DNA from: Candidatus Baldrarchaeum yapensis
Lineage (GTDB): Archaea; Asgardarchaeota; Baldrarchaeia; Baldrarchaeales; Baldrarchaeaceae
DNA: 10,038 bases
Direction: 5' to 3'
Assembly: GCA_016840465.1 (NCBI GenBank)
Contig: JAEOSH010000068.1
Location: 1 to 10,038 of the forward strand
Shown piece after piece: positions 1 to 10,038 of the stretch. Position numbers and translations under genes: made by a program. The notes beneath the pieces are model-generated. The model saw nothing but the letters and a program-made list of their open reading frames with translations. It was not told the DNA's origin and did not search any database. Within the stretch, counting starts at the first letter, position 1, and each line of letters begins with the position of its first letter.

Positions 1-86
1 GTGGTATGCTCGACGAGAGGTGAGAGGGGCAGAAACGTATAGTGTTGCATTTGCTGCCTTCACGCACCTTTGCAACCTCAAACCCC

Positions 87-93
87 TTATAAA
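87..93 (+). promoter_or_regulatory. Putative archaeal TATA box (TTATAAA)
   Basis: TTATAAA lies ~20-25 nt upstream of the start of the GC-rich structured segment at ~112-116, roughly the archaeal TATA-to-start spacing. Confidence 0.5.
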
Positions 94-111
94 GGACTTC
101 TGTTGTGTTAA

Positions 112-289
112 GCGGGCTCCGCCCGGGATGTGGGAGGGACGGTGAGAGGGAGGGAAGCCCGAAAGGGCGGAGCGAAGGGTCAGATGGATGTGCGGAGTAC
201 CGCTCCCCGCGAAAGCCCGTCGATGGACCCCGAGACGGGAAGGCTTTCCGCCACGCACGCGTCAATTGCAACAAAAGTGGCGGAGAGTC
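112..289 (+). ncRNA. Candidate structured non-coding RNA or long structured 5' leader; partly resembles archaeal tnpB 3'-end (omega/sot-type) RNAs
   Basis: Hand count gives 118/180 G+C over 111-290, visibly above the flanking DNA. Four mutually compatible stems: GCTCCGCCC(116-124)/GGGCGGAGC(165-173), 9 bp perfect; GCGG hairpin within 192-210; CCCGTC(216-221)/GACGGG(234-239), 6 bp perfect; 242-254/277-289, 13 bp with two G-U pairs. A TATA box lies upstream. Confidence 0.45.
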
Positions 290-318
290 AGAACGGTAAA
301 ATGGAGGTCACAAAGGAT

Positions 319-1890
319 ATGAAACTCGTCCATAAGGCCTAAACTTGCACGCCAAGAGGACGCCAGATAAGGTTGCGATAATTTCTCACCGGTTCCTTCC
401 CATGCCGCACCGGGAGAGGCTTACATTCAGAGAGATGTACGGACTTTCAAACAGATTTGCAAATGCTCTCAGCGGGTTGATAGAGCCAGGGGTAGAGCCG
501 CCCTTCTGATGCCGAATCTCAAGAAGTGACTCTACATAGCGAATGCAATCGGCAAGGCGGCGGAATTCTTGTCCCAGTGAACTTCCTCTTTAAGGGGCAG
601 GAGATAAAGTACATAATTAAATAACAGTAAGGCCCGCGTAATACTCGCCACTACCCGTGGGGTGAACTGCGGTAAAGACAGTTGTCAACGAGTTAGAGAC
701 AGTCGAGAGGATAATAATTCTGTATGGAGACAAATTCCCGAGAATGAGAAAATGAAGAACATGATAGATCTGCAGGCCTCGTCTCCTCGGGTTCTCCCGA
801 GTACATTTCGTACGACGCATCTCCTGAGGATCTCACATGCATAATGTACACGGACGGAACGACCGGCAGACCGAAGGGCGTCATGTACACGCACAAAATG
901 GTTCTCACAAATGCTAGGATGATAGTAAAGAGGTCGGGCTCAACAAGAATGACGTGGGGCTTACGCTGGTTTCATAATTCCACTCCTATGGCTTTATAAA
1001 CATGGTTCGTGGTGGTGTGGTCGGTTAACGGATGTTTGCATGGACATATTCGACCCGCGTACGACTTTGGAGTTAATACAGGAGTATAAGGTCACCGTGT
1101 GGCTGGAGTTTCGGCAATGCACAGAAAGATTCTGGATCTGCTGGAGGAGGTCATCAAAAAGTATGACCTGAGGTCCCTGAGAATGCGCGTCTCAGCGGCG
1201 GAGAACCTGCCGATGGAGGTACACAAGCGCTGGAAGGAACTCACCGGATGTGAACTTTATGAGGGTCACGGGTTAACTGAACATTAACCAACTGCTTCGC
1301 TAAATCCGGGACCCGGATTGGGTATCAACAAGATTGGAAGTGCGGGGCCGCCGCTCGACGGCGTGGAGGTTAAGATAGTTGACGAGGAGGGAAAAGAAGT
1401 TCCACTGGGAGAGCCCGGGGAACTGCTGTGCGTCATGAAGGGTATTGGAAGGATCCGGAGCGCACAAAGCAAGTGATAGACGAGGAGGGCTGGCTGTACA
1501 CCGGAGATATGATGAAGATGGACGAGGACAGGCATCTTTATTTCGTGGAAAGGAAGAGCGAAATGATAAACGTCGCTGGGGAGAAGGTCTGGCCAGCGGA
1601 GGTGGAGGAAGCAATTCTGCAGCACCTCGGCGGTGGTGCTCATTGCAGTGATCGGGGATTCCAAATAGGATAAAGGGCGAGGTTCCGAAGGCGATAATTC
1701 AGCTGAAGCCTGATTACAAACCGTCCCCCGAACTTGCGGAGGAGATAATAAAGTGGTGCAAGGAGAGGCTGGCATCCTTCAAGGTCCCACGTGAGGTGGA
1801 GTTCAGGTCTACGTTGTCCTTGACTCCTATTGGAAAAGTGTGGAGGAATCTGCTGAAGCAGGAGAAGAGGAAAAGTACGAGAGAAGATGA
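319..1890 (+). pseudogene. Long-chain acyl-CoA synthetase / AMP-binding (ANL superfamily) ligase pseudogene
   Basis: Fragments across frames give, in the correct order: MKLVHKA/LHAKRTPDKVAII; GGILVPVNFLFKGQEIKYII; AMP-binding loop YTDGTTGRPKGVMYTH (847-894); EGHGLTE followed by an in-frame TAA (1285-1287); GELL-VMKG/YWKDPERT (frameshift ~1441); GWLYTGD; ERKSEMINVAGEKVWPAEVEE; GEVPKA; LASFKVPREVEF; GKV. A GGAGGT site lies at 303-308. There are many frameshifts and stops, and the 3' end is approximate. Confidence 0.93.
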
Positions 1891-1898
1891 AAGGGAGA

Positions 1899-2483
1899 GG
1901 GAGGCCGCCAGAAGTCAGTTTTCTCATCAAAAACCTCATCTATTACCTCTTCGCTGTACTTCACTACGTCCTTGAAACACTTAGGATCGTGGGATCGAAC
2001 TTAAAGATTCCTCGAAGTGGGAGAACCTGCTATCCTCATAGAAATCTCCCAGAAGTTTTCAGTCCGGTATTAACATATAATTTCTGCGTCTATGTACTTC
2101 TTTTTAAGCTATTCGTCAACTTTTATCGAATCCACCGATTTGCCTCATGAAATTGCCACTCTGAAGGAAGAATGGAAATCTATCGAGAATTTGAACACCC
2201 TAGGAACGTAATATGCGATTATTACTCCTAGAAACGTAAGCACGGGGAGATCCTCTATCATGTCGATTATTGGCGTCATCTGCCACCCTCTTCCACGATC
2301 TTGTTCAGCACCTTCTCACGGCACTTTAATTTATGCTTGGAGTGTGTGGCTATCACCACTAACAGTTGAAAAGTGAAAAACTGTAACCTGCAGAGTATTT
2401 TCGAGATCTTCCGGATCAGATATTACATCTTCATCTATACTGGCGAGTTTTTTCCTCAAGGATTTTAAATCATCCGCAGGCAT
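1899..2483 (-). pseudogene. Probable decayed coding remnant(s) of uncertain identity
   Basis: GGAGG (2491-2495) precedes an ATG at 2483 encoding MPADDLKSLRKKLASIDEDVISDPEDLE, which continues after a frameshift as YSAGYSF. A second ATG at 2279 overlaps a TGA and encodes a hydrophobic stretch (LPVLTFLGVIIAYYV). A distal fragment reads DPKCFKDVVKYSEEVIDEVFDEKTDFWRPP. The fragments are interrupted by stops. Confidence 0.3.
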
Positions 2484-2939
2484 TTTCTCTCCTCCCCATA
2501 TTGCATTAAGAGTAACTTTTCCAGACATAAAATAATAAGTCTAATGTGTAGTGGAAAGAACAAGCAGATATATGTGATTATAAAGTAAAAATAAAATGTT
2601 TCATGTCATGACGCAATTTTTGTAATCATTTTTAGAAAATTAGTGATTGCTATACTGTGTCCTTATGCGATAATAAATTATGACGAAAAATCATACGAGT
2701 AGCGTGAGACCGGAGGTTTACAAAGTTGTGGTAATATCAAGGAAATATTTAAAAACCAAAACACGATCTTTCTCAAAAGGTCTGTTAATGTGTACCCGAA
2801 ACCGTGGAAGTGAAAAATACCGGCAAATGCTCATGCCTAATAAAAAGTGTCCGGAAATCGCATCACATGGCAACGGTTGTTAAAATAGAATGGGTAGAGC
2901 GCGTGAACTGTGGGCAATGAGACATGAGGGGATGAAGTT

Positions 2940-3713
2940 ATGGGTAGTAACGTTCACAAGAAACTTCTGGTGGGTGATATTGGCAGTAGTGCGGATAACC
3001 TTCTTTCCGCAAGGCTCATTTGCCAAGCAACACAATTTCTCATATCAGGTCACTCGCTTACCGCGGTGGAGCGCGCAAAGGCGGCTCTGAGAGTTGCGGC
3101 GAGGTATTATGGGAGACTGAATAACGGCATCAGGACTACGATAAACGATCTTTTGCTCTCAACGCCACAGAGTCCCCCTTACCACAAGTGGAGCGTCGAG
3201 TACGTTGTTAAAACAATAGAGGTACTTAGGACAATTGGAGCGATAGACAAAAAGACGAGTGGTGTGCTTTTTAACATGCTATCATTGGTCGTTTCGCGGG
3301 AACAGATTAACGAGTTGAGGTCCTTGGTTATTAGGTCATCCTCGCCTCGGAAAGAAGAAAGCACGAGTATGAGCACTGCGCCGCCCATGGGTGATATTGT
3401 TGCACTGAAAAGTAAGGCTATGGAGCTGCGTGCGGAAGTTAAGAGGCTGAAGTACGAAGTTACGACTGAGAAAAGAAAATTAATGTCAATAAATGGAGAA
3501 ATACGAGGGGTGAAAGAAAAGATCAGCAGGATTAGCAACTCGATGGAAAATGTTGGTGAGCAGGTACGTGATGCGGGAACGGTGCAATATTTCCAAGTAG
3601 CGGGTGTTGCGTTTCCAGATGCGGAAATTGTTCCGATAAGATTGATCATTGCGCTGAGTGTACTAGTATCCTTATTGTTCATAGCGTTGCTAATGCTTTC
3701 CGGGGCCGCGTGA
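2940..3713 (+). CDS. Hypothetical tail-anchored protein (helical N-domain, Ser-rich linker, coiled coil, C-terminal transmembrane helix)
   Basis: 257 aa ORF with a purine-rich RBS-like GAGGGG upstream. A heptad-like segment DIVALKSKAMELRAEVKRLKYEV...MENVGEQV precedes a terminal hydrophobic helix LIIALSVLVSLLFIALLML. There is no N-terminal signal. Confidence 0.75.
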   Translation: MGSNVHKKLLVGDIGSSADNLLSARLICQATQFLISGHSLTAVERAKAALRVAARYYGRLNNGIRTTINDLLLSTPQSPPYHKWSVEYVVKTIEVLRTIGAIDKKTSGVLFNMLSLVVSREQINELRSLVIRSSSPRKEESTSMSTAPPMGDIVALKSKAMELRAEVKRLKYEVTTEKRKLMSINGEIRGVKEKISRISNSMENVGEQVRDAGTVQYFQVAGVAFPDAEIVPIRLIIALSVLVSLLFIALLMLSGAA

Positions 3714-3717
3714 GCAT

Positions 3718-3873
3718 TTAACATTTAAATTTGTACCTTTCCGTGAAGTAGAATCTAGGATCGAGGCTACTTCTTAGAACCTTAACCAGGTAGCGGCATT
3801 TTCTTTTCTTGCACTCCCGCAGCTTGTCTCTACGAATAACGCGTCGGTGGTATATGCACACGAATACCTCCAT
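3718..3873 (-). CDS. Small basic Cys/His microprotein (51 aa), putative Zn-binding
   Basis: Translated by hand: MEVFVCIYHRRVIRRDKLRECKKRKCRYLVKVLRSSLDPRFYFTERYKFKC*. GGAGG (3882-3886) lies 8 nt before the ATG, with an AT-rich TTAATTAAAA element further upstream. The stop abuts the convergent 2940-3713 gene 4 nt away. Confidence 0.6.
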   Translation of the reverse strand: MEVFVCIYHRRVIRRDKLRECKKRKCRYLVKVLRSSLDPRFYFTERYKFKC

Positions 3874-4005
3874 CGCGCACTCCTCCACAGAAATAGTATG
3901 TAAAATGGGTTTTAATTAACATTTCTGTACTCTATCGAAAATCCGTATGATCGGGTAATAGACAAAGGTTGGGAATGATGGAAGTATGAGGATGCGGAGG
4001 CCGCA

Positions 4006-4149
4006 ATGTTAGGTGCGTGGTGCGCAGACCATATATTTTATGCGCGGAAAACTATCTCTTGCCTTTTATACATGCCGTATTCTGCGCTATATTCGAAAGT
4101 GTCATGCGTAAGATTAAAGTACGGAAAATTTCAAAATGCCACCCCATGA
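4006..4149 (+). CDS. Possible small ORF (47 aa), Cys-containing
   Basis: MLGAWCADHIFYARKTISCLLYMPYSALYSKVSCVRLKYGKFQNATP*, with GGAGG (3996-4000) 5 nt before the ATG. There is no other support. Confidence 0.25.
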   Translation: MLGAWCADHIFYARKTISCLLYMPYSALYSKVSCVRLKYGKFQNATP

Positions 4150-4367
4150 CAACGCATTTCGGCATCCGTATATTTTTTGTCATTACAATTAGCTTTATAT
4201 GCCTCCTATTGCTAGATTTTCACGATGCCTGAGAGGGGGAGACGCCGAGCGGGTGCGATGACGATGGAGGGAGGGGCGAAGAAGTCGGCATCAAACCTCC
4301 TCCTTTCCTTAATGTTATGCTCATGTCCTCCTGTCACGGGCTATCAGTAATATCTTTCTGGAGATTG

Positions 4368-4910
4368 TTATGCAGATAGCCCATGGTCCGTCCACTGGTT
4401 CCTCCAGCCCTCATCTCTCTCTCGCATCACCCGAATTATTCTCTCGCGCGCCCTTCTTATCTCATCCGGGATCTTGGATACGCCACCGAACCTTAATATT
4501 TCATTAAGCAGCTTTTCAACAAAATCGCGTGTCTGTCCGGTTTTTTCAACGATTATTTCCACTAGTTCATCGAAGCTGCCGAACTCTAGCGAATTCACGA
4601 GAGTTGCCAGTTCAGAAAGCGAAGGCGCCCTTCTTCTTACTTTAGTTGGTTTTCCGAGCGCCGCTGTGATTTGTAAAAGCATTTGCTCTGGCGCCTTCAC
4701 CGTTGCCTTTAGTACTAGGTTCAGACTCTCATCGAGTGAGAACGTAAGCCAAACGCGTGCGCGTGCACCAGCGTGTTCTATTTCGATGATGTTACCCTCC
4801 TCGCTCACGAATCTGTACTTGAAGTTTGCCCTTATACCATCGATGAAGTTGGAGATTGATTTGACCCCCTTTAGCGTATACGAAAGTAGAAGCTCGGTCA
4901 TGTGAGTCAT
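4368..4910 (-). CDS. Hypothetical protein (alpha/beta N-terminal half, helical C-terminal half)
   Basis: 180 aa ORF with natural charged/hydrophobic patterning, divergent from the PLD gene across a 74-nt spacer. The true start may be the second ATG (4901), which is preceded by GGAGATGA. Confidence 0.8.
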   Translation of the reverse strand: MTHMTELLLSYTLKGVKSISNFIDGIRANFKYRFVSEEGNIIEIEHAGARARVWLTFSLDESLNLVLKATVKAPEQMLLQITAALGKPTKVRRRAPSLSELATLVNSLEFGSFDELVEIIVEKTGQTRDFVEKLLNEILRFGGVSKIPDEIRRARERIIRVMRERDEGWRNQWTDHGLSA

Positions 4911-4984
4911 CTCCCGTCAGTCCCGTGCATCATTGCGACCGGAAGCACTATATGTAGTCTTGCGTCTATCATATCAACGTTGGG

Positions 4985-6145
4985 GTGGAAGCGTTGAGAA
5001 GGTCAGCATACTATTTGGTAATCTTGGTATTAGTACTAATTCTGGCAATAGCTAGCTACAGGCTTCTAACGGGACCCCAAGCGCAGGAGGAGATCGAGGC
5101 AACCGTTATATGCTTTATATCGCCGGATAACAGCTACAGCGTTATATGTCAGTTAATAGATAGCGCGAATCATTCGATATTCATAGAGATGTACTTGATG
5201 ACGAACCCATACCTTGTGGCCCGGCTCGACCACGCCATAGAGAGGGGTGTGAGGGTGATAGTAATATTAGAAGGAAATCCACTGGGTATCTCCGAGGAAT
5301 ATGTTGAATGGGTAGCTTATAATCTAACATTGGCTGGTGCCAGTGTTTACTGGGCACCTAAGGAGTTCAACTTCATGCATAGCAAGTTCATGATAATAGA
5401 CAACGAAACTGTCGTTGTGGAGAGCGCAAATTGGGCGAAAACCGGAATTCCGGTCGATCCATCATATGGAAATCGAGAATGGGGAATTGCCATTAAAAGT
5501 TCGGTGGTGGCGCAACAGTTTCTTGAGATATTCCTGAAAGATTTGGCAAATGCAACCTTCTATGAGCCATCCGGCGAGGAAGTATATGAAGGGCCATCAC
5601 CGTCGATTCCGGAAGGAAAATACAGTCCTCAATTTGAGCCTTTCGAGTATTCGGGCAAAATCCGCGTTAAGGCTGTGTTTTCGCCGGAAAATTCCGAGCA
5701 TGAGATTTTAGATTTGATAAGATCTGCGAATGAGAGCATATGTATTGAAGTCGTGTACATGTACTTACATTGGGGAGAGGAGATAAATCCGTTCGTACGT
5801 GCATTGGTTGACGCGAGCAAGAGGGGTGTAAGGATAAGAATTATACTTGACATTGGAAAGATGGATGACAGCACCGAAGCGATCGAGTATCTGCTCGATA
5901 ATGGTAATGCCAGCAACATCGAGGTTAGGTGGAGCAACAGCACCTACTTTGAGACGATGCACAACAAGGGAATAATCGTGGACGGGAAGGTTGTTCTGAT
6001 ATCGAGTATAAACTGGAGCGAGAGTTCGGTGTGGAAGAACAGGGAGGCAGGGGTTATAGTGTACTGCGAGGAAATTGCGCAGTACTATCTCGGGGTGTTC
6101 AACTGGGATTGGGCGGTATCAGTGCCGTACCAGCCATCCTCCTAA
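4985..6145 (+). CDS. Phospholipase D-superfamily protein with two HKD motifs and an N-terminal membrane anchor/signal
   Basis: 386 aa, GTG start. Motifs HSKFMIIDNETVVVESANW and HNKGIIVDGKVVLISSINWS (HxKxxxxD...SxN). Hydrophobic N-terminus YYLVILVLVLILAIASY. Confidence 0.93.
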   Translation: MEALRRSAYYLVILVLVLILAIASYRLLTGPQAQEEIEATVICFISPDNSYSVICQLIDSANHSIFIEMYLMTNPYLVARLDHAIERGVRVIVILEGNPLGISEEYVEWVAYNLTLAGASVYWAPKEFNFMHSKFMIIDNETVVVESANWAKTGIPVDPSYGNREWGIAIKSSVVAQQFLEIFLKDLANATFYEPSGEEVYEGPSPSIPEGKYSPQFEPFEYSGKIRVKAVFSPENSEHEILDLIRSANESICIEVVYMYLHWGEEINPFVRALVDASKRGVRIRIILDIGKMDDSTEAIEYLLDNGNASNIEVRWSNSTYFETMHNKGIIVDGKVVLISSINWSESSVWKNREAGVIVYCEEIAQYYLGVFNWDWAVSVPYQPSS

Positions 6146-6160
6146 CATTACAGACATATT

Positions 6161-6188
6161 TTTATATTACATTGTAGTCATTGTAATA
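6161..6188 (+). promoter_or_regulatory. TATA box overlapped by an inverted-repeat operator upstream of the TA operon
   Basis: TTTATA at 6161-6166 lies ~25 nt before ATG 6191, consistent with a leaderless transcript. A perfect inverted repeat TATTACA(6165-6171)-N10-TGTAATA(6182-6188) overlaps it. Confidence 0.6.
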
Positions 6189-6190
6189 CG

Positions 6191-6736
6191 ATGGTGGGAA
6201 ATGCGGTCATAGATGCGACATCCCTCATATATCTCGCGAAGTCGTCGAACAAGGATCTGCTCCGGTTACTTTTCGGCAAGATACTGGTACCACCCGCCGT
6301 ATACGAGGAGGTCGTAGTACGCGGTAAGGAGATAGGTGCAAGAGATGCATTGCTGGTCGAGAGGAACATAAAGGAAGGAGTGCTGGAAGTTGTGGCCATA
6401 GACGATGATAAAGTGAAATCTGTTGAAAACATGCTACCTACCAAGCTATCGGCCGGGGAGAGGGAAGCGATAGCCATCGCAGCGACACGCAACTTGCCCA
6501 TCATACTTGATGATCTGGCCGCCGTGAGGGTATGTATGGACCTCGACCTCGAGACGCTAACATCGGAAATTGTCCTGATAACTGCGCTTATCGAGGGACT
6601 GATTTCAGCGAGAGAATTCGAGGAGCGGCTTTCGAGGTTACTCAACTATAAGAGGGTAAGGACGGATGTCCTCCTCCTAATATTGAAGATTCATGAAATG
6701 TGGGTGAGGAAGTTTGGTAAAGAAGGCGGTACTTAA
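6191..6736 (+). CDS. vapC: PIN-domain (VapC-like, DUF3368-type) toxin
   Basis: 181 aa with the PIN acidic motifs VIDATSLIYLAK, ILVPPAVYEEV, LSAGEREAIAIA and IILDD. Confidence 0.88.
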   Translation: MVGNAVIDATSLIYLAKSSNKDLLRLLFGKILVPPAVYEEVVVRGKEIGARDALLVERNIKEGVLEVVAIDDDKVKSVENMLPTKLSAGEREAIAIAATRNLPIILDDLAAVRVCMDLDLETLTSEIVLITALIEGLISAREFEERLSRLLNYKRVRTDVLLLILKIHEMWVRKFGKEGGT

Positions 6737-7052
6737 CATAAGAGTGGAGGAGTCTCTCCTGAGAGATTTGGACATGCTAGCCGAGATGGAAGGCCTGGAC
6801 AGATCCGAAGTTGCACGAAGCATTCTGAAAACAGGAATTAAGGAGCGGAAAATAAAGAAAGCGGTAGAACTCTACATGAAGGGAGAGGTCTCACTTGCCA
6901 GGGCTGCGGAGATAGCCGGAGTTCCTCTTACCGAAATGATCGATATTGTTAACCGTATGGGGATTGAGGACAGGATGACAGTAGAGACCTTCAGAGAACT
7001 CGTCAGAAGAGCGTTAAAAAGTAAAAAGCCCGAATTGTCCGATCTTATATGA
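6714..7052 (+). CDS. UPF0175-family antitoxin-like protein with N-terminal ribbon-helix-helix (CopG-like) domain
   Basis: 112 aa, TTG start with GGTGAGG upstream, overlapping the PIN gene 3' end. RHH pattern VLNIRVEESLLRDLDMLAEMEGLDRSEVARSIL is followed by the UPF0175 pattern AVELYMKGEVSLARAAEIAGV. Confidence 0.88.
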   Translation: MVKKAVLNIRVEESLLRDLDMLAEMEGLDRSEVARSILKTGIKERKIKKAVELYMKGEVSLARAAEIAGVPLTEMIDIVNRMGIEDRMTVETFRELVRRALKSKKPELSDLI

Positions 7053-7083
7053 TCCCTTAGTAGTAAGGTAATGAGGTGAAAAT

Positions 7084-7308
7084 ATGTTGGGAAATTTACG
7101 AAAAAAGACACGCTTTATTGCAAAATCTGGTGATAAGATCATAGCAGAGGCAGAATCCCTCGAGGATCTCGCAAAAACGTTACAGGCTAGGAACATAGAT
7201 CCACGCCATGTCGAGATATTATCCTCCGAAGACCTCTTCGGAACACGAAGGGAGCATATGGGATTTAGAATTCCCAAAAGTCGCTATAAGGAATTATCCG
7301 ATCAGTAA
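7084..7308 (+). CDS. Small DUF5678-like protein
   Basis: 74 aa with a GAGGTGA RBS (7073-7079). The pattern FIAKSGDKIIAEAESLEDLAKTLQARNIDPRHVEI matches my recollection of DUF5678-type small archaeal proteins. Confidence 0.65.
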   Translation: MLGNLRKKTRFIAKSGDKIIAEAESLEDLAKTLQARNIDPRHVEILSSEDLFGTRREHMGFRIPKSRYKELSDQ

Positions 7309-7618
7309 CGCGATGATTGTGCCGAAAGGACATCTCGGCATCGAATTATATATAATTTCTAGGAATGCCCGGTTCCTCTGATTCAATTTTGAATGAAGAG
7401 AAAAGTTTTGTAACGAGGAATCTCGCGGATCACATAAAGTGAATACTCGCTAGTGATGGCGAATTAGCAGGCCCCGATACCTTAAGGGAAAAGATTAATT
7501 AGAGTAACGTGTCGAACTTGTGTCCAACAGGTGGTAATCATGGTTCTAAGCAGGTAACTTCTTCTCGTCTCAATTCTCAGATGCTCTGATAAAATTGCGT
7601 CTTCTGGAGGAGATTTCT

Positions 7619-10018
7619 ATGGGAGAAATTCTAGTGCGTCCGATGAGAGTAGAGGATTTCAAAGATGTTATGGAAATTTACGTCAGTTGTGATGAGGACT
7701 TCCCCTTCACCCTTCTAAGGGGAGAACCGCCCTATCCCGATGCGCTGAGATGGAGCTTCATAGAGTATGACCCCCTCATGAAGTTGGTCGCCGAGGTTGA
7801 TGGGAAGGTAGTCGGGTACCTATCGATTAACAGGCACTGGGAGGACCCCGATGCCGGATACCTCGAGTTTCTGATAGTCCACAGGAATTTTAGGAGGAGG
7901 GGCGTGGCGACTGCGCTGATCCGCGAGGCGCACAGGATCTTCAAAGAGAGGGGATTTCGGAGGTACTCTTTGGATACGTGGCTCACGAACTTCCGGGCCA
8001 GGAATTTGTACCGGAAAATGGGCTTCGTATGGGTGCCCGAGTCCGAAATCGTCTACGAGAACTTTCTACTGACGATAGAAAAAGTGCCGATATGCGCAGA
8101 ATGGCTAAATAAACACCCTGATGCGAAATTATCGGTTACAGAACACCCTGTAGAGTCCGAAAATGGCAAGTTTTGGGTTTACGAGTGGAAGAGCGACGGT
8201 GACGAGTTGCGGGTCGAGATAGACGTGAAGTCCAAAGGAATTAGGAGCATAACGTCCACCGAGGGTAAAGCCATTCTCCATGTAAGTGCAGTCCCAGTAA
8301 AATGGAAATATTACACAGGTGAGAACGTGAGCATCAGGGTGAGGGCGCTATTAGAGGGTAACGGGGAACTGGCATTAGGAATTCACGTAAAACTCCCCGA
8401 AGGATGGAAGGCGAACCCCTCTTTCATCTCAACACATATAAGGCCCTCGGAACAGTACGAGGTGAACATCTCGTTATCACCGGAAGGCGATGAACTTGAA
8501 GAGGGTGTGAAGAGTTTTCCGGTGATAGTATCGCTGGGTGGCAGATCGGTTGAATTAATGCCGTCATTTAAGGTCGAAGCCCCGCTCGAGATCATAGCCC
8601 CGGACAGTTACGTGATAATAAACTCCGGAGAGCGTGCGGAAGTCCCGATAGCGGCGAAGGTGAAGAGGAATTTAGAACACGCGACTATAAAGATACTCTG
8701 TGAGCCGGATCTTCTCATTTCCCCGAGAGAAATAAGAATAGAGCGCGCAAAGGAGGGGGACGTTGTCAAAGAAAAAATTGCATTGATGCCAGCCGGAGAC
8801 GACTATCGGGAGTACAGAGTAAAATTCGTATGTTACGCCGATAAAGAAGGTAAAGCCGTGCGGCTTCTCGAGTTACCAGTGGTCGTTACCAGGTTTCCGG
8901 GGGTTGCAGTTCTCAGGACCGGCGACCAATTGATAATCGACAACCCCCACATGAGGGTTATACTGAATGCAAAAACCGGAGACCTGAAGAAGATAGTGGA
9001 CAAAACGAACGGGGTCAAATGCACGTTCTGGGGAGGTATAAGAGAGGGGGTACACCCCAACTTCAATCTCCTGGAGTTTGTCACCCGGGAGTTCAGAATC
9101 GTGGAGAAGTCCCGCGAGAGGTGCGTAATAGAAGCGATCATGGAGTCATTCCGCAATAGAGATCTGCGCCTCACTAGGAGGATCACCGTTACGAACTCCA
9201 TGCCGGCACTACTACTCGAGTGGCAGTTAACAAATACGGGTGAAAGACCCTTCGAGGGAGCGTTAAAGGTAGCGCTTAATGTGCTTCCAGGAGATGAGTC
9301 CCCCGCGCACAGACTCGTGGTTCCCTATAGGAACTCCGTAATTTCCGATAGAGTTGTTAAGAGGTTCTGGCCTCCCATCTTTCCGCTTGCGATCAAAATT
9401 GGAGAAAGTGAAGGCTGGATTGCGATCGAGGACGAGCTACAGAAGTCCGTCACCGGAATTGTGGTAAGGGAAAATACCGGCGTCGACGAGATAGTCGCAG
9501 ATTACAGAGGATATGTTTACGGACTTGGCTTTCTACAGAGCAAAATCGGAAAGCTAAACCCCGGTGAGAGCATAAATATCGGACCGGTGGCGTTGCTTAT
9601 CACAAGGGGAGATTGGAGCATCATACGCCACTTTTATTTGAACTTTGGAGGGAAAAAGAGGCTAAAATCTCCCATTAAAATATTAAAACCATATGTTTTC
9701 TCGATAGAAGCTCCGAACGACGTCATCAGAAAGGATAAACCCTCCGAAATTGTAGTAACAGCACGTCGATTGGTATCACGTCCCGCCGCCGGCACGATAC
9801 GATTAAGGGAAAGCAATGGGATTCGTTTTTCGCCAAACTGTGTGCGCTTCGAAGTATTTGAGAAAGATTGCACTAGCGAGCGGCTATCGGTTACTATCGA
9901 TGAGAATTTGCAACCCGGGATCTACGAGATAAATGGGGAGGTAGAAATACTCGGCAGAATTCTACCGCTGAGCAGGTTGATAGCGCTGGTGTCGTCTTCC
10001 GGAACACTGAGTTACAAG
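7619..10018 (+). CDS. Large GNAT-family N-acetyltransferase fusion protein (>=800 aa, 3' truncated by the sequence end)
   Basis: GGAGGAG RBS at 7606-7612 and ATG at 7619. I read the frame open for 800 codons with no stop. The N-terminal GNAT has the acetyl-CoA motif LIVHRNFRRRGVATALI and NFRARNLYRKMGF, followed by beta-rich segments (VKLPEGWKANP; LIIDNPHMRVILNAKTGDLKKIVDKTNG; LEWQLTNTGE). It is absent from the ORF track because it has no stop. Confidence 0.92.
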
Positions 10019-10019
10019 A

Positions 10020-10038
10020 CTGTCTCTTATACACATCT
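10020..10038 (+). other. Nextera/Tn5 mosaic-end adapter (sequencing artefact)
   Basis: Exact 19-nt CTGTCTCTTATACACATCT at the extreme 3' end. Confidence 0.98.

Follow-up and report, generated by a model that had tools for sequence, protein, structure and literature searches.

A multicopy IS607-type mini-element with the modules of a TnpB guide-RNA scaffold in the Asgard archaeon Candidatus Baldrarchaeum yapensis

What is the short, GC-rich segment with an apparent promoter of its own that lies at the start of a contig of Candidatus Baldrarchaeum yapensis? We analysed a window of 10,038 nucleotides (contig JAEOSH010000068.1, positions 1–10,038); all window features given below are on its forward strand. 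A sequence-only reading had proposed that positions 87–289 encode a stand-alone structured RNA, which might be a guide scaffold of the TnpB type, a domesticated element remnant or a new class of archaeal noncoding RNA. Its account of the base composition was correct: a TATA box (TTATAAA, 87–93) precedes a segment of 66% GC (112–296), compared with 62% for 87–289, 43% for the left-end part (the preceding 80 nt) and 46% for the genome. The proposed limits were slightly too short. The unit runs from 30 to 296, with the last helix and a terminal CAGAACGG ending at 296.

Copies, boundaries and insertion sites of the 267-bp repeat

We searched the source assembly (100 contigs, 2.27 Mb, 96% complete) and recovered ~14 orphan copies of this 267-bp unit (CAGAAAC...CAGAACGG) at 88–99% identity, in addition to two divergent copies (contigs C75 and C76) and a few relics. 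Eleven copies scored above 210 bits with the RNA model described below. The copies share sharp ends: when they were aligned with their flanks, every copy started at GG(GG)CAGAAACGTATAG and ended at GAGTCAGAACGG, and the flanks were unrelated. Upstream of GG(GG)CAGAAAC the copies had nothing in common, and GGGG stood at this point in 9 of 11. The left flank in the window (1–29) likewise ends in GGGG (26–29), where GG at 28–29 is the twin of the crossover dinucleotide and the G-run is TAM-like. The left end proper (30–72) is the presumed binding region of TnpA, a serine recombinase. Copies terminate in GG and have the G-run GGG(G) on the left flank; terminal inverted repeats, terminal palindromes and target duplications were all absent from the element copies examined. 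These GG termini, the G-rich left flank and the lack of repeats match the published behavior of IS607 elements, where crossover occurs between GG dinucleotides and no repeats are found (PMC10711439, PMC13565253), and the GGG TAM used by the TnpB of the IS607 element ISXfa1 (PMC10711439).

Two copies allowed the empty site to be reconstructed. Exact excision in silico of the copy on contig C89 (CAGAAAC through AACGG, 269 bp) joined two fragments into a 563-aa P-loop ATPase frame, and three paralogues in the genome aligned straight over the empty-site junction. Exact removal of the copy on contig C92 regained a 192-aa frame. Scarless, GG-type insertion was thereby shown.

In four metagenome DNA runs, contig breakpoints fell at 21–28 and at 296–297, and the element region was 5–20 times deeper than the unique DNA on its right. 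Three copies lie at contig ends. No contig in these four runs spanned an empty site at the window locus, and when the loose-end flanks from the metagenome were searched in the genome for polymorphic insertions, those that matched were the flanks of other copies. One joint skipping 60–175 was seen in a single low-depth metagenome contig. The left flank of the window copy is unreliable, because positions 1–82, including the 29 nt of flank, are identical to the copy on contig C69 together with its flank (C69 3383–3464), and because the contig begins at window position 1. This flank is probably an assembly (k-mer/graph) overlap at the repeat, and it may not belong to the window copy.

Further sequences resembled parts of the repeat. 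Contig C82 of the same genome carries a single-copy 256-bp element (5704–5959) whose left end is 94% alike and whose last 32 nt are the same as those of the family; its interior is GC-rich but different, with a TTTATATTT box of its own, and its match to the RNA model is weak (33.8 bits). This element may represent a second lineage of mini-elements. On contig C76, a solo left end (22491–22537) is followed 1.7 kb downstream by a copy shortened to 221 bp (24188–24414), in which the left end is truncated and the first helix partly deleted, and a V4R-like ORF lies between them. We considered and rejected a cargo-carrying derivative spanning C76 22491–24414; the solo left end and the separate short copy are probably two relics.

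Downstream of the element, few long ORFs are present in window 300–2900. Two short ORFs in the same frame (844–1284) match consecutive parts of the Pfam AMP-binding enzyme profile (profile positions 168–214 and 260–323), and this region looks like a decayed pseudogene of the acyl-CoA-synthetase type just downstream of the mini-element. Farther along, the window encodes a two-domain PLD-like protein (PLDc_2, 4985–6145), a protein with a PIN domain that weakly matches the TPR-GreAB-C-PIN type (6191–6736), and a protein of >814 aa whose N-terminal domain is a GNAT acetyltransferase and whose gene is cut off by the contig end (7595–10036).

The parent element and the origin of the pieces

The sequence-only reading had likened the segment to the 3' ends of archaeal tnpB genes of the IS200/IS605 type. 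The likeness to tnpB was borne out by the genome search; the family was a different one. A check for a TnpB gene was positive, in that the genome holds one cognate full-length tnpA–tnpB element of the IS607 type (contig C96, 26176–28026). It encodes a TnpA of 203 aa, which is a serine recombinase (Pfam Resolvase and HTH_17), and a TnpB of ~430 aa, which matches PF07282, has both RuvC and zinc-finger motifs, and finds its best solved relative in the IS607-like Fanzor2 L79. Six TnpB-like zinc-finger matches occur in the genome, and only the one on C96 is cognate. A Y1 (IS200/IS605) transposase, PF01797, was looked for in the 96%-complete genome and was not found. The parent is thus an IS607 element with a serine recombinase.

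Three pieces of this parent can be recognized in the window. Positions 27–72 align with the left end of the C96 element (C96 26176–26221). Positions 117–172 are a remnant of the CPICG...NGRR zinc-finger codons of tnpB, aligning with C96 27782–27825 with a 12-nt loop insertion. Positions 182–296 are 83% identical to C96 27912–28026, the last 115 nt of tnpB and the right end, and tblastn of this region to the TnpB C-terminus gave an E value of 6e-17. Between the left end and the zinc-finger piece, a 44-nt linker with the TATA box takes the place of 1.55 kb of the parent, which comprises tnpA and the greater part of tnpB. Between the second and third pieces, C96 27826–27911 has no counterpart; a short linker (174–181, 8–9 nt among copies) stands in place of ~86 nt of tnpB with the RuvC-III (DRD) motif. 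The earlier statement that the 110 nt upstream of the tnpB-like motif lack TnpB coding was therefore half right: the DRD/RuvC-III segment is absent, but a zinc-finger remnant is present.

We tested the IS607 assignment on two points, and both held: the copies have common boundaries, and their ends align with those of the C96 element. We are nearly certain that window 30–296 is a MITE-like, non-autonomous IS607 mini-transposon composed of three pieces of a tnpA(Ser)–tnpB parent, and that its two tnpB-derived pieces together constitute the structured modules of a TnpB guide-RNA (omega/reRNA) scaffold. That is, in place of the stand-alone RNA gene or domesticated remnant first suggested, the locus holds a multicopy and recently mobile transposon that lacks genes of its own.

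The suggestion of a new archaeal RNA class fares no better, since the ends are homologous to a tnpA–tnpB element and homologues lie at tnpB 3' ends. A search of Rfam, which the sequence-only reading had recommended, matched no family at gathering thresholds over the whole window, RAGATH-18 and HgcC included, and at E values up to 10 over window 1–700 the sole match was a spurious lncRNA model. This lack of a match is what an independent noncoding RNA gene unrelated to transposons would lead one to expect, and we nevertheless give that explanation practically no credence, given the many copies, the transposon boundaries, and the homologies to tnpA–tnpB ends and at tnpB 3' ends.

Archaeal sot RNAs and HgcC-type RNAs are encoded in the 3' end of IS1341-type tnpB genes. 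The RNA of the mini-element resembles them in deriving from an archaeal tnpB 3' end. Unlike those RNAs, which are described as overlapping an intact tnpB of IS200/IS605-type elements, it lies at a locus without tnpB and has no HgcC match.

Two peculiarities of sequence were observed in passing. The tnpB of C96 (26819–28129; 720–2030 of locus L083) has no stop codon within the element, so that its frame crosses the entire guide-RNA scaffold and the GG terminus and gains 34 codons before the first stop of the flanking DNA closes it. The tnpB frames at the homologous loci L010 and L011 likewise continue past the right end; the C-terminal tail of TnpB therefore varies by insertion site. In the window, 172–184 and 280–292 form an 11/13 direct repeat (GCGAAGGGTCAGA and GCGGAGAGTCAGA), and the linker after the first helix resembles the right-end terminus after the last. 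This repeat could be due to chance, or could be a trace of how the internal deletion arose.

RNA structure, promoter box and coding potential

The four compatible stems of the earlier description were all found, and they fall into the two tnpB-derived modules. In the 5' module (116–173), derived from the zinc-finger codons, a perfect 9-bp helix H1 (116–124/165–173) encloses H2 (131–134/158–161). The 3' module (182–296) comprises S3 (192–197/203–210), S4 (216–221/234–239), the 13-bp S5 (242–254/277–289) and the terminus CAGAACGG (289–296). All predicted pairs are standard in the window copy, which is therefore a well-preserved member of the family. The minimum free energy of the fold was −79.2 kcal/mol (z = −1.16), a value equalled by 28 of 200 shuffles that preserved dinucleotide content, and the z-scores were not significant on either strand. 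Because the fold is no more stable than that of shuffled sequences, the support for structure comes from covariation and not from energy.

We built a covariance model from the orphan copies and searched 151 sampled genomes of the same phylum. Matches were obtained in 13 genomes, including Candidatus Asgardarchaeum abyssi (G008). About half of the matches lay at the 3' end of a complete tnpB gene, in many cases one preceded by a tnpA that encodes a serine recombinase, and the remainder were orphans carrying only a C-terminal remnant of tnpB. An exact 17-mer of the right end was sought in 185,579 species genomes; most of the matches were chance ones in bacteria, but Asgardarchaeum abyssi and a few contigs of uncultured archaea were also matched. 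The genomes G069 (L033, L043 and L050; six matches in this genome) and G063 (L035 and L044) harbor another family of orphan loci that resemble the scaffold. These loci have the 3' modules common to the family and differ in the middle section and the upstream region, and a TnpB remnant nearby is absent or marginal.

The covariation check that had been recommended came out in favor of the helices. In a model-fitted alignment of 30 sequences, 35 of 43 pairs showed two-sided changes (9/9 pairs in H1, 4/4 in H2), and 87.9% of cells were paired, compared with 40–45% in slid controls. An unfitted MAFFT alignment of 18 sequences, covering the three 3' helices, showed two-sided changes in 12 of 25 pairs and 95.8% paired cells (slid controls, 36–52%). 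None of 500 shuffles reached the observed values in either alignment. The pairing of S3 was marked by compensatory changes from C-G to G-C and from G-C to C-G. An RNAalifold hairpin at 192–195/200–203 with 186–188/204–206 was set aside, because, unlike the S3 pairing, it showed zero two-sided change; an RNAalifold closing helix at 207–209/294–296 was also set aside as invariant and hence uninformative. The copy on contig C92 of genome G003, which is only 68% identical, preserves H1, S4 and S5 by two-sided changes. The consensus fold of 14 tnpB-linked homologues likewise contains H1/H2, S3, S4 and S5, and the DRD-coding spacer of these homologues shows no consensus structure. The mini-element keeps exactly those modules that are structured in its tnpB-linked homologues, without the coding-only RuvC-III spacer.

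Whether the orphan RNA itself is under selection is a separate matter. Across 11 close copies, paired columns changed 2.7 times less than unpaired columns (0.024 vs 0.066), and changed pairs were kept 15 times and broken 7 times. These counts are only suggestive of selection on the orphan RNA, as the copies are related and the counts are not independent. When the two divergent copies from C75 and C76 were added, the kept pairs numbered 22 and the broken ones 21, which indicates that some copies are decaying. The two-sided changes described above come mostly from tnpB-linked or distant homologues, and the close copies of this genome resemble one another too much for selection on the orphan RNA to be proved from them. 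Such data would suit an explanation in which the mini-transposon is as described but its RNA region is an inert inheritance from the parent and yields no working guide RNA; the right-hand 180 bp would owe their persistence to the youth of the copies or to a need of the recombinase for a long right end. Copies that are 88–99% identical have also had little time to decay. We consider an inert RNA unlikely, though a serious contender. The element is not a one-step deletion, as two structured modules were kept and the unstructured spacer between them was dropped. RNA helices have no obvious use for an IS607 recombinase acting on double-stranded DNA, yet the G003 copy has retained three of them by two-sided changes. 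The slower evolution of paired columns in the close copies, and the conservation across lineages of the TATA box and of its spacing to the first helix, also speak against an inert RNA.

The evidence on the TATA box is as follows. The box, which together with an A-rich stretch occupies 81–93, is near-invariant to invariant among the genome copies. The box is kept in the G003 copy (same order, different family), where the same AAAACC-TTTATAAAGG box is found. The orphan lineages G075:C41, G001:C110 and G004:C291 have a fused left end and, by eye, a TATA-like box 31–40 nt ahead of the first helix. Because the position of the family's box differs from that of the putative tnpA TATA box of the parent, we infer its promoter role from conservation and spacing only. 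Transcription is predicted to start at ~114–118.

A promoter that points out through the right end raises the thought that the element acts mainly as a mobile outward promoter, or as a structured leader, that alters the expression of downstream genes. About 4–5 of 13 copies do lie 60–360 bp upstream of a co-oriented ORF. Most copies are placed otherwise, however; at least two (C89 and C92) interrupt genes, the window copy precedes the decayed AMP-binding gene and not an intact one, and the conservation of the TnpB scaffold would be left without a reason. This role is very improbable.

The earlier reading also saw no convincing protein coding in the segment, and we agree. Codon variants among the copies in the TnpB-derived frame were 12 synonymous and 29 non-synonymous, near the random expectation (24% synonymous), and indels of 1–2 nt between the first and second modules distinguish the copies. 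The mini-element has no protein-coding signal or capacity of its own. A small protein, either a TnpB C-terminal tail from the ATG at 184 or the 70-aa frame 130–342, could be imagined from the open frame that runs in TnpB register through the right end, and from the presence of this ATG in copies of the genome. It is scarcely credible in view of the codon variants; moreover, the indels shift the upstream frame, and the C-terminus of such a protein would vary at each insertion site.

Proposed action in trans and comparison with known systems

Of the identities first put forward, we prefer that of a guide scaffold which has a promoter of its own. We envisage three steps. The serine recombinase of C96 would move the mini-element in trans, by crossover at GG dinucleotides into G-rich sites and without target duplication. 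The internal TATA box would start a transcript near 115, giving a scaffold of ~180 nt through the right end followed by ~16–20 nt of flank as guide. The single cognate TnpB would then load this RNA in trans and cut the empty site left by excision (G-run TAM plus guide), and repair from the sister chromosome copy would restore the mini-element (restorative homing). Restorative homing has been shown for IS605 and reported for IS607 (PMC10055086, PMC13565253), and for stand-alone omega RNAs of OMEGA systems function in trans has been reported (Altae-Tran et al. 2021, as presented in PMC10691335).

Mobilisation in trans is suggested by the similarity of the ends and by copies that are 97–99% identical. 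If the transcript leaves the right end as in TnpB systems, the flanking DNA at 297–316 would be the putative guide, and beyond ...AACGG the copies have unrelated sequences, which would be expected of guides. We also scanned the genome for matches to the 16-nt putative guides of 15 copies, allowing up to 2 mismatches; the number of matches was about that expected by chance (~1 per guide), and the matches did not consistently adjoin a G-run. The scaffold of the C96 TnpB is itself only 83% identical to the mini-element in the 3' module. We infer that the RNA would guide TnpB in trans to protect the mini-elements. Overall, a mini-transposon carrying a TnpB guide RNA that acts in trans is the explanation we favor, with modest confidence; the three-step mechanism as a whole we judge to have an even chance of being right. 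More tentative still, and in our view somewhat short of an even chance, is the idea that the ~14 promoter-equipped, minimised guide-RNA cassettes are functional, with one TnpB serving a whole population of gene-less IS607 elements.

The closest precedents are the stand-alone omega RNAs of OMEGA systems, as far as these are presented in PMC10691335 (Altae-Tran et al. 2021). They too are mobilised loci without a protein gene, with the scaffold at the transposon end only, and their genomes contain a compatible effector; for the mini-element, compatibility with the C96 TnpB is putative. The mini-element is unlike the omega RNAs presented there in its origin from an IS607 TnpB element, its Asgard host and its internal archaeal TATA box. 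It differs also in its naturally shortened scaffold, from which the RuvC-III-coding spacer has been removed, and its function in trans is putative.

A second comparison is with PATEs (Dyall-Smith et al. 2011, PMC3119063; PMC10055086), which are gene-less, keep left and right ends, and, in the IS200/IS605 family, often encode omega RNAs (Meers et al. 2023, PMC10055086). PATEs are believed to need TnpA and TnpB in trans, as the mini-element would. In contrast, PATEs have hairpin-forming ends and move as single strands by a Y1 HUH transposase (PMC3119063, PMC10055086), whereas the mini-element has GG-terminated IS607 ends without terminal palindromes and its partner TnpA is a serine recombinase; with PF01797 not found in the genome, it falls outside the PATEs as so defined. 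With the IS607 tnpA(Ser)–tnpB elements, namely ISXfa1 (PMC10711439) and the IStrons (bioRxiv 10.1101/2023.11.20.567912), it has in common the GG crossover, the G-rich TAM side, membership of a family for which restorative homing has been shown, a scaffold overlapping the tnpB 3' end and, presumably, a right-flank guide. Unlike ISXfa1 and the IS607 IStrons, both genes are deleted in the mini-element, and their RAGATH-18 RNA has no match in the window.

We concluded that this striking GC-rich segment, seemingly a structured RNA with a promoter of its own and found again and again in the genome, is transposon debris with a likely selfish function, and not a new host RNA class. For annotation, its copies matter because they break the assembly, as at the three contig ends, and disrupt genes, as with the C89 ATPase. 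A stand-alone omega RNA on a gene-less transposon was already known. What distinguishes the present case is that it combines an IS607 origin with an Asgard host, a shortened scaffold and an archaeal promoter box inside the element, making it an IS607-derived counterpart of the PATE and stand-alone omega RNA idea, which was known earlier from IS200/IS605 elements and OMEGA systems. A further distinguishing feature is the ratio of ~14 orphans to one cognate nuclease gene in this archaeon. In the mini-element, nature has also carried out a deletion experiment on a Fanzor2-like TnpB scaffold: the structured modules were kept and the coding-only spacer was lost. If the cassettes are functional, this deletion would show which parts of the scaffold are dispensable, and could be useful for shrinking editors of the TnpB/Fanzor type. 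The genome would in that case present a natural arrangement of one nuclease with many guides, intermediate between a guide encoded by a transposon and a CRISPR-like set of guides scattered over the genome.
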